From: Escherichia phage Turkey3
DNA: 64,000 nt
Sequence record: PQ471515.1
Direction: 5' to 3' (one strand)
Numbering within the stretch: the stretch's first letter is position 1; the number at the start of each line of letters is the position of its first letter. Below are positions 4,152 through 4,642 of this stretch, in pieces. Under the pieces are notes generated by a model. It was not told where the DNA came from, ran no database searches, and was given only the letters and a program-made list of their open reading frames with translations. A program made the position numbers and the translations under genes.

Positions 4152-4180
4152 TGAGACACTTTTGAATTTGGTGCTATAAT
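4152..4180 (+). promoter_or_regulatory. sigma70-like early promoter (GAGACA, 16 nt, TG-n-TATAAT)
   Basis: TATAAT at 4175-4180 preceded by TGC; -35-like GAGACA about 16 nt upstream; no ORF downstream. Confidence 0.5.
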
Positions 4181-4181
4181 G

Positions 4182-4640
4182 TTAATTGTAGTGATGACAA
4201 TCCTGTTGAATGCAGAAATGCATATAAATTAGAACCTGATCCTATCGAAAATGTAGATGGCAGATGAGCAGTTCAACAGTGCGATGAGCAGAAGAAACCC
4301 GTTAGATGTGGGCATAGTTTGAACCCCTCACGGCGACACGGCTCAATAAAGAACTCCGATAAGCATACAGAGAGTTCCTCGATAGATGTATAAGGATCGC
4401 ACCTTACCAGATTTGCTAAGGGAGTTTATTAAGTGATTTAATAAACAGCCTGAAGTTTGATTGTATAGACTTTCAGGTGAGTGTCAGGATGATTAAGACT
4501 GACGACCGTTGCACATGACTGCGATAGAGAGAAACAGAGCAACCCGCTTTCGTTCTTAATGAATTTTAAGAAATTCGCAATACAATAAATGCTGAAACCA
4601 TCAGCGTCAAGAATTAAGAGACTTAATTGTCTCTTTTTTA
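4182..4640 (+). ncRNA. candidate non-coding RNA of unknown class (promoter-to-terminator unit without ORF)
   Basis: Bounded by promoter 4152-4180 and terminator 4617-4642; no + ORF of 60 aa or more in the ORF track; visibly less AT-rich than flanks; internal direct repeats (ATGAGCAG x2) and short hairpins. Confidence 0.35.
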
Positions 4641-4642
4641 TT
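4617..4642 (+). terminator. intrinsic terminator (AGAGAC-TTAATT-GTCTCT plus TTTTTTATT)
   Basis: 6 bp perfect stem with T-run. Confidence 0.55.

Follow-up and report, generated by a model that had tools for sequence, protein, structure and literature searches.

RNA-1 and its conserved fold

The 64,000-nucleotide stretch of Escherichia phage Turkey3 analysed here (PQ471515.1; in the following, the window) carries the genes for gp46 (1401-3548, plus strand) and endonuclease VII (3567-4058, minus strand) and, to the right of position 4896, a small open reading frame (ORF) followed by a baseplate-hub/portal-like gene, both on the minus strand. No credible gene is present within 4059-4896. This non-coding region contains, at 4187-4642 on the plus strand, the element designated RNA-1, a structured non-coding RNA of ~455 nucleotides (nt) recognized by its comparative fold, the helices of which are named P1 to P16 here. 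The family of structured RNAs that it represents is almost certainly genuine and had not been filed before. Escherichia phage WPEC5, a jumbo phage of 381 kb from the 121Q/PBECO4 (Asteriusvirus) group, matches the window at 100% identity, and its genome holds four divergent copies of RNA-1, A to D, all on one strand; the window copy is copy A. The order gp46, endonuclease VII, RNA, small ORF and baseplate hub is syntenic across relatives, where most records leave a gap of 700-800 nt at the RNA and others contain mutually conflicting short ORFs.

The support for structure is comparative; folding of the single sequence is uninformative, with weak z-scores that are equal on both strands (-2.4 and -2.5). 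We aligned 42 distinct copies from the phage collection, IMG/VR, metagenomes, bacterial genomes and the whole WPEC5 genome, derived a consensus fold with RNAalifold and used as controls 500 shuffles of the pairing partners as well as partners slid by 1-3 columns. The consensus comprises 103 pairs in 20 helices, plus a 7-bp pseudoknot. The proportion of paired cells was 94.0% as compared with 78.4% for shuffled and 40-44% for slid partners, and the covariation score of the main fold was 0.421 as compared with 0.156 and 0.055-0.079, respectively. None of the 500 shuffles reached the observed value in any of five measures. Across main fold and pseudoknot, covariation scores ranged from 0.42 to 0.57 versus 0.02-0.11 in the slid controls. 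Changes on both sides were recorded for 68 of the 103 pairs (644 cells), and the compensatory substitutions exceed what relatedness and composition account for, as is characteristic of a structured non-coding RNA. At paired positions, G.U cells outnumber A.C cells 326 to 62, which identifies the plus strand as the RNA strand. A separate alignment of 11 orthologues shows invariant blocks between hairpins of variable length, a conserved promoter and a compensating terminator stem; here, RNAalifold returned 86 pairs, 36 of them with changes on both sides. A preliminary description of the locus, made from the window's sequence alone, had named alignment with related phages as a check on its proposal of a non-coding RNA, and this alignment yielded extensive compensatory changes including those in the pseudoknot.

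The 5' part of the fold is organized by the long-range helix P1 (4203-4210 with 4273-4279), which covaries at seven of its eight pairs, and contains P2 (4236-4246 with 4256-4263) with the conserved loop GAAAAUGUA. It is followed on the plus strand by P4 (4285-4289 with 4341-4345), P5 (4299-4306 with 4328-4333), P6 (4351-4356 with 4372-4377) and P7 (4391-4395 with 4402-4406). Helix P8 (4415-4422 with 4506-4512) is weakly supported. It spans P9 (4424-4428 with 4442-4446), P10 (4448-4459 with 4467-4478) and P11 (4482-4484 with 4502-4504). The 3' part consists of P12 (4520-4524 with 4575-4579), P13 (4527-4531 with 4547-4551) and P14 (4553-4557 with 4568-4572). Long unpaired runs, for example GAUAGAGAGAAACAGAGCAACCCGC, are invariant. 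An optional hairpin module of ~30 nt, roughly UUUAUACAAUAUAGAUCCGUCCAAAAUU with variants, is inserted in P9 in some copies and in P14 in others. Large ribozymes carry peripheral elements in a similar manner, and the module is possibly a reusable tertiary-contact element. In phage A4, the 3' strand of P6 contains an 11-nt tandem duplication (AGTTCCTCGAT twice, ~1700-1725 of the stretch examined for that phage), a recent slip that lengthens the P6 region without destroying the helix.

Complementarity between the loop of the P10 hairpin (AUUGUAU, 4460-4466) and the AUACAAU stretch at 4580-4586, both on the plus strand, was first seen by eye. Both strands change together in the paralogues, which contain the combinations GUCGAAU/AUUCGAC, AUUGCAU/AUGCAAU and UUUAUGU/ACAUAAA. 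In the formal test, 96.9% of the cells were paired and six of the seven pairs had changed on both sides, while slid controls reached 23-41%. None of 500 shuffles attained the observed value in three of the measures; 10 did so for the count of both-side changes and 110 for the count of pair types. The prohead RNA of phage phi29 (pRNA) is likewise phage-encoded, relies on pairing between a loop and a single strand that covaries, and differs between relatives. In contrast to pRNA, RNA-1 is ~2.5 times larger, occurs in multiple copies and has no sequence similarity to it, and the pairing described here may be purely intramolecular.

Transcription signals and coding potential

The preliminary description had delimited a promoter-to-terminator unit of about 450 nt without ORF as a candidate non-coding RNA. 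All elements listed there are present at the positions given, and the comparative evidence strongly supports the proposal. The sigma70-like promoter consists of GAGACA (4153-4158), a 16-nt spacer and TATAAT (4175-4180) preceded by TG (4172-4173), with 10 of 12 consensus matches on the plus strand; consensus scan and conservation together define it as TGAGACA in the -35 region and an extended -10 element TGcTATAAT (4152-4180). Note that promoter-like sites are no more common in the surrounding 3-kb region than in shuffled sequence (9 found, 11.8 expected), so the promoter is credible only through other evidence. It is kept in register among orthologues and paralogues, and T13, G14 and TG.TATAAT are invariant in the alignment of 11 orthologues. 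Transcription would start near 4187. The class TGrGACA-N14-TGnTATAAT has ~20 instances in WPEC5, all on one strand and including those of units A, C and D. Promoters of the same class, with TGAAACG as the -35 element, have been described as 'divergent RpoD-like' for phages CBB and GAP32, and 11 of 18 such promoters in CBB reside upstream of a region with DNA-synthesis genes (PMC5259590). The fixed promoter geometry suggests a dedicated regulon, possibly of middle genes.

The intrinsic terminator of RNA-1, found by terminator scan at 4616-4642 (plus strand), is formed by the stem AAGAGAC/GUCUCUU and a U run, the stem-loop proper occupying 4616-4635 and being followed by TTTTTT. Terminator-like sites are enriched in the 3-kb region (6 found, 1.4 expected), and the stem covaries (AGAGAC/GUCUCU, AGAUCC/GGGUCU, AGUACC/GGUACU). 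It is present in ~30 of the 42 copies and missing from WPEC5 copies C and D. A predicted sigma-70 promoter and a predicted intrinsic terminator, both conserved and both on the strand of the structure, are the features of a free-standing RNA gene. The unit is also less AT-rich than its flanks, with a G+C content of 0.38-0.44 over 4200-4600 as against 0.25-0.32 on either side. A direct repeat, ATGAGCAG, does occur twice (4264-4271 and 4284-4291); however, it is no feature of the family and is regarded as incidental: each copy belongs to a different structural element, and conservation is lacking for the second.

On the plus strand, the unit contains no ORF of 60 or more amino acids, the largest lying wholly inside comprising 21-24. 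Other ORFs are one of 49 amino acids starting at 4589 and one of 81 on the minus strand (4438-4683). No reading frame is conserved: stop-to-stop segments of different copies lie on different strands and at different positions, all frames of the window copy are interrupted by 4-17 stops each, and most of the indels that separate close orthologues have lengths not divisible by three, with three 1-nt indels found between the window and 121Q. The ORFs called by annotators match no family in Pfam or PHROG. A protein-coding gene or pseudogene is rejected on these grounds, including the frameshifted remnant of a protein gene in relatives that the preliminary description had considered as a counter-explanation.

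The covariance-model scan proposed there was also performed. With cmscan and Rfam 15 (4227 models, among them RNase P, tmRNA, 6S, group I and II introns, hammerhead and small ribozymes, GOLLD, ROOL, OLE and HEARO), window positions 3400-5400 gave only weak, terminator-like or chance matches at E<=10, and 4187-4600 gave none with E<1. Nor did any of the copies at nine further loci match at E<=0.01. The sole match at these loci, a thiamine pyrophosphate (TPP) riboswitch (73.5 bits; 5385-5481, minus strand) upstream of thiM in an Enterobacteriaceae metagenome-assembled genome (MAG), served as a positive control. ARAGORN detected neither tRNA nor tmRNA in the whole window, and the tRNA genes of the genome are situated ~100 kb away. 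The earlier suggestion of a site where T4-like phages carry stable RNA genes is therefore not borne out; the absence of tRNA, tmRNA and RNase P RNA signatures, in contrast, is confirmed by ARAGORN, cmscan and comparison with rnpB.

Individual look-alikes were rejected. RNase P RNA is of similar size, and a few short motifs, for example AAACAGAGCAACCCGC of RNA-1 and AACAGAGAGCAAACCGCC of M1 RNA, resemble each other by eye only: the Smith-Waterman score against E. coli rnpB was 24 (dinucleotide-shuffle mean 27.3), the three look-alike motifs each lay within the shuffle range and occurred in a different order, and nhmmer and cmscan returned nothing. The sequence GAUGAG...CGA looks like a hammerhead core; however, conservation is lacking for the GAAA that is required behind stem II, and the hammerhead models give no match. 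A group I or II intron is incompatible with an intergenic unit that has its own promoter and differing flanking genes in each copy, and no intron model matches. Homology to ncRNA001 and ncRNA002, two non-coding RNAs (ncRNAs) defined by RNA-seq in the related Pseudomonas phage PA5oct (PMC7318152), was also rejected, since nhmmer with filters off gave matches only at E>3. None of the records inspected has an ncRNA feature at the locus, which is left blank or covered by short hypothetical proteins, and no paper connecting these phage genera with an ncRNA was found in the searchable literature. With no match among 4,227 Rfam families and no description found in that literature (subscription journals and later work excepted), we regard RNA-1 as categorically new as an RNA class.

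Conserved appendix, paralogues and island copies

The terminator at 4642 does mark an end of the unit as it had been proposed, but conservation goes on for another ~150-200 nt. A C/G hairpin, P16 (UUCAUUCCCC-UGCG-GGGGGAUGAA, 4646-4669, plus strand), follows every copy, be it in a phage or in an island, and is absent from the rest of the window. Within the WPEC5 genome (381 kb), the strict pattern CCCCTGCGGGGGGATG occurs only at units A, B and C, and unit D has the variant CCCTCCGTGCGGGGGG. G.U wobbles in P16 appear on the plus strand only. Next comes the invariant motif CAACAAAUCCCGUCAAG (CAACAAAUCYCGUCA) with a UAUWAAA-like element behind it (4678-4694, plus strand); it is conserved in all copies, and AAAYCYCGTCA is present in the whole WPEC5 genome at the four units only. 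A reading of P16 and the downstream motif as boxA/boxB (nut-like) was discarded because the resemblance to GCUCUUUAACAA is too weak.

Some 40-70 nt past this unique motif, a second structured stretch begins (domain 2, 4737-4796, plus strand), for which alignment and RNAalifold of 24 copies give moderate support. It starts with the invariant stem S1, GAAUAU/AUAUUC in the window and GAAUU/AAUUC in general form, which encloses the hairpin GUUAC-GUA-GUAAC (4737-4765), and ends with a second hairpin (4766-4796). In other genera the latter, S2, reads UUUGAC-AUUC-GAAG-GAAU-GGCAAA, and three of its pairs have changed on both sides; as read from the sequences, domain 2 of the window and its 121Q-like relatives is a rearranged version. 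Domain 2 runs straight into the ribosome-binding site of a gene on the same strand in WPEC5 copies B, C and D, as it does in most of the paralogues that other genera carry. The products of these genes have unrelated N-termini, and two of them are annotated, one as a methyltransferase and one as an ADP-ribosylglycohydrolase. The unit of locus A is not followed by a same-strand gene; it ends in a bidirectional terminator (4862-4903, with sites found on both strands by terminator scan), which closes the non-coding region. This arrangement recurs at the syntenic locus in other genera; in a Yersinia phage, a methyltransferase gene is located behind unit A. A weak Rfam match to the Actinobacillus small RNA Arrc14 (4853-4949, minus strand; E 0.004, 35.6 bits, gathering score 99) derives almost entirely from the hairpin of the minus-strand terminator and does not denote true family membership.

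With the 466-nt core as query, matches were obtained in 71 phage records, at four or five places in each and with identities down to ~65%; every one of these records is from a Rak2-like jumbo phage. The phages infect Escherichia, Salmonella, Klebsiella, Erwinia, Yersinia, Serratia, Cronobacter, Pectobacterium and Xanthomonas, and conservation extends over at least five genera, those named being Asteriusvirus, Eneladusvirus, Mimasvirus and Alcyoneusvirus alongside the unclassified Salmonella phage Munch. In WPEC5, copy D (~71.5-72.0 kb) directly follows a sigma-factor gene, and copies A, B and C are located at 185.7-186.2, 270.2-270.7 and 320.5-321.0 kb, respectively; blastn and nhmmer found no second copy inside the 64-kb window. 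The four copies form separate clusters at 22% distance, each with orthologues in other genera, which indicates that the paralogues are old. A fifth copy is present in other genera, behind the homologue of the WPEC5 gene at 107.5 kb. Homologous cargo genes, whose products share the N-terminus MITAICE, follow RNA units with upstream neighbours that differ between phages, which hints that unit and cargo can move as a cassette. We also noted that the WPEC5 record has a direct terminal repeat of ~21.6 kb (genes at 153-21470 recur at 359817-381134), in agreement with those reported for CBB.

Bacterial sequences were searched with an exact 26-nt degenerate pattern and, for 5,426 complete E. coli genomes and for plasmids, with BLAST. 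The pattern located the RNA in three records, the chromosome of Serratia fonticola, Serratia sp. 2723 and the Enterobacteriaceae MAG mentioned above. BLAST yielded a copy in 2 of the 5,426 E. coli genomes and none on plasmids. Each bacterial copy sits in a small integrated element. Both Serratia copies adjoin a large serine recombinase gene, with or without ParB-like genes, and the MAG copy adjoins a gene for a CI-like repressor beside thiM; the TPP riboswitch upstream of thiM identifies the contig as bacterial chromosome and places the RNA unit in an insertion beside the thi operon. In E. coli LR-29-1, an island of ~10.7 kb lies between ffs and ybaA (9958-20302 of the stretch examined) and contains a tyrosine integrase gene split by IS3, a resolvase gene and the candidate defence genes PDC-M45A and PDC-M45C with DUF4326. 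Iteron-like repeats of ATCGATCGTT are found in the same island at ~14980-15030. The site between ffs and ybaA is also that of the island in E. coli EEC_W5. These four islands are unrelated, differ in integrases and cargo and have only the RNA unit in common; no protein is shared among them or between them and the phages. The island copies retain the promoter type, the P16 hairpin and the motif, and their fold has 88-89% canonical pairs, with compensatory pseudoknot variants of their own. The gene that comes next has the opposite orientation in three of the four islands. Both Serratia islands have a second phage-type promoter (TGGAAC...TATACT) ~170 nt upstream of that of the RNA (5130-5320 and 4421-4240), which would give rise to a short conserved upstream transcript.

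Possible functions

The rich fold and the many invariant unpaired nucleotides argue that the RNA works through its three-dimensional shape. We consider it about an even bet, at a probability of roughly 0.5, that RNA-1 is an autonomous folded RNA acting together with a phage or host factor. According to this proposal, host sigma-70 RNA polymerase would transcribe RNA-1 early. Most transcripts from copies A and B would stop at the terminator and yield a discrete RNA of ~455 nt; from copies C and D, which lack it, the RNA would form the 5' part of a longer transcript. The functional entity would be the RNA product itself, a fold-dependent module in the form of either a protein-binding scaffold or a ribozyme-like machine, and its partner factor would be supplied by the phage or the host and not by a neighbouring gene. 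The island copies could be mimics that tap into the function of the RNA or interfere with it on phage infection. Autonomy is indicated by the missing downstream gene at locus A, the unrelated downstream genes elsewhere, the islands that share only the unit, and the fold that is kept in the island copies.

In terms of architecture and context, RNA-1 resembles GOLLD, ROOL, OLE and raiA, which likewise have lengths of hundreds of nucleotides, many helices, pseudoknots and long invariant unpaired stretches, are encoded by phages or mobile elements, stand free with their own promoter and have functions that cannot be deduced from their neighbours. However, RNA-1 matched none of them in sequence or structure when scanned with cmscan, it is not positioned beside tRNA genes, and in contrast to these RNAs it occurs as four or five divergent paralogues per genome that are always followed by their private hairpin and motif. 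It is unusual for an RNA to be large, highly conserved and complex in its tertiary architecture, and nearly all such RNAs of known function act as ribozymes or form the core of a ribonucleoprotein machine. RNA-1 may be a new ribozyme or ribonucleoprotein class.

Several points weigh against this interpretation. Four or five divergent, syntenic paralogues fit a role in cis better than they fit a single trans-acting product, and the fixed positions of these paralogues, the appendix behind the terminator and the capture by islands would fit a cis-acting, DNA-linked role. A terminated stable RNA is too simple and incomplete a picture, because conservation passes the terminator and ~30% of the copies are devoid of it. 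No partner protein, ligand or target was identified for RNA-1, no catalytic motif is recognizable in it, and no transcriptome paper on this phage group was found in the searchable literature.

In principle, these observations can also be accommodated by a replication origin. Each unit would then be an RNA-primed origin of the kind of T4 oriF/oriG or ColE1 RNA II, at which RNA-1 serves as a folded pre-primer and the 3' region, consisting of the U run, the G6 hairpin, the motif and an A+T-rich stretch, forms a persistent hybrid that primes the synthesis of DNA. Islands would carry a copy so that an infecting phage replicates and perhaps transduces them. We give this explanation a low, though not negligible, chance. 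The copies are distributed at ~72, 186, 270 and 321 kb over ~360 kb of unique sequence, their positions are conserved across genera, and phage T4 has a similar number of origins. T4-like genomes have several such sites, and an origin could explain the capture of units by hitch-hiking islands: a sole element common to four unrelated islands is just what an element depending on a T4-like helper would borrow, and plasmids with T4 origins are replicated and packaged by T4. Promoter, A+T-rich stretch and G run are all observed at the unit, the P16 hairpin and the 11-nt motif are confined to the units, and the promoter class has been reported upstream of the DNA-synthesis gene region in CBB (PMC5259590). 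Like ColE1 RNA II and the T4 oriF/oriG transcripts, RNA-1 is a folded RNA of ~500 nt that has its own promoter, lies in a non-coding stretch and carries a G run near its 3' end; its size (~450-550 nt from start to G run) is similar to that of ColE1 RNA II.

In contrast to those transcripts, however, the G run is preceded by a strong intrinsic terminator, which is present in ~70% of the copies just upstream of the supposed hybrid zone and would release the RNA there, there is no antisense regulator, and the fold is far more conserved. Selection has acted on 20 helices and a pseudoknot, with G.U wobbles, and no primer RNA is known to need so extensive a fold. The units are accompanied by neither iterons nor an initiator gene. 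Cumulative GC skew tracks the orientation of the genes and has no inflection at B, C or D; this is weak evidence, as T4 origins are not known to show such an inflection either. In more general terms, the units could constitute a portable RNA-based cis-acting module of jumbo T4-like phages, most likely an origin with a folded pre-primer, a copy of which is captured by islands. Should this tentative idea, which we rate no higher than the origin itself, be true, it would describe a new phage-satellite relationship in which the sole borrowed part is an RNA gene, and the islands, one of them with candidate defence genes, would be replicated or mobilized by the phage, or else jam it.

Somewhat less probable than an origin is a cis-acting leader or expression platform, either of the processive-antitermination type known from HK022 put and EAR or resembling a T-box attenuator. 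The nascent RNA would act on its own polymerase or transcript such that genes past the terminator are expressed. As in the put, EAR and T-box leaders, a structured RNA directly follows the promoter, a terminator and then genes come next, and there are several copies per genome, each before a different accessory gene. The co-oriented downstream gene expected of a leader is present in WPEC5 only behind copies B, C and D, with further examples in most paralogues of other genera and the methyltransferase gene of the Yersinia phage. Locus A keeps its fold in the different genera, although in most of them there is no gene behind it that could be regulated, and three of the four islands likewise have no same-strand downstream gene; as these copies are conserved nonetheless, a mere leader is disfavoured, and the family as a whole does not classify as a cis-regulatory leader, riboswitch or attenuator. 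A terminator/antiterminator switch was considered as well, because the 3' strand of the terminator could pair with the invariant AGAGAGA of P13. It was dismissed, since terminator stems vary between phages while P13 does not, and inspection thus shows no conserved alternative pairing. Furthermore, ~30% of the copies have no terminator at all, and with 450 nt as opposed to 70-300 nt in put, EAR and T-box leaders, RNA-1 is larger than any of these and four to six times larger than known antitermination RNAs.

We regard it as quite improbable that the unit is a selfish mobile RNA-based element, the fold of which serves its own spread as in introns with the cargo hitch-hiking. A copy number of four or five with differing cargo genes, the MITAICE cargo behind units with different upstream neighbours and the presence in four unrelated islands are compatible with such an element. 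Yet the unit does not carry along a reverse transcriptase, integrase or homing endonuclease, it does not reside inside a gene and hence is no intron, no Rfam intron or ribozyme model matches, and most copies are syntenic across genera, which indicates old and stable inheritance. Finally, a decayed protein gene or a chance hairpin-rich intergenic stretch without function, as the short hypothetical proteins annotated over the RNA in some GenBank records might suggest, can practically be dismissed, since these ORFs differ in strand and position by record, no frame of the window copy has fewer than four stops, indels mostly are not multiples of three, Pfam and PHROG give no match and covariation is overwhelming.

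An autonomous RNA acting with a phage or host factor thus remains our preferred interpretation. The family has unusually clean comparative support, with 42 distinct sequences, more than 100 pairs and a pseudoknot, and its occurrence in cultivable E. coli phages (121Q, PBECO4, phAPEC6 and relatives) makes it directly testable. Four or five copies are kept in the largest known enterobacterial phages, and unrelated host islands have picked up the RNA independently, which implies a function worth stealing. Whether the RNA is an origin, a polymerase modifier, a ribonucleoprotein or a ribozyme, its function concerns a blank step of jumbo-phage biology.

The findings also bear on annotation. The WPEC5 record lists the hypothetical proteins CDS0379 and CDS0378 over RNA and appendix (window 4438-4683 and 4706-4825, both minus strand; 6339-6551 and 6607-6726 in the WPEC5 stretch examined). 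Hypothetical proteins annotated over the RNA loci are not conserved and probably spurious, and in many GenBank records they are to be replaced by an ncRNA feature.

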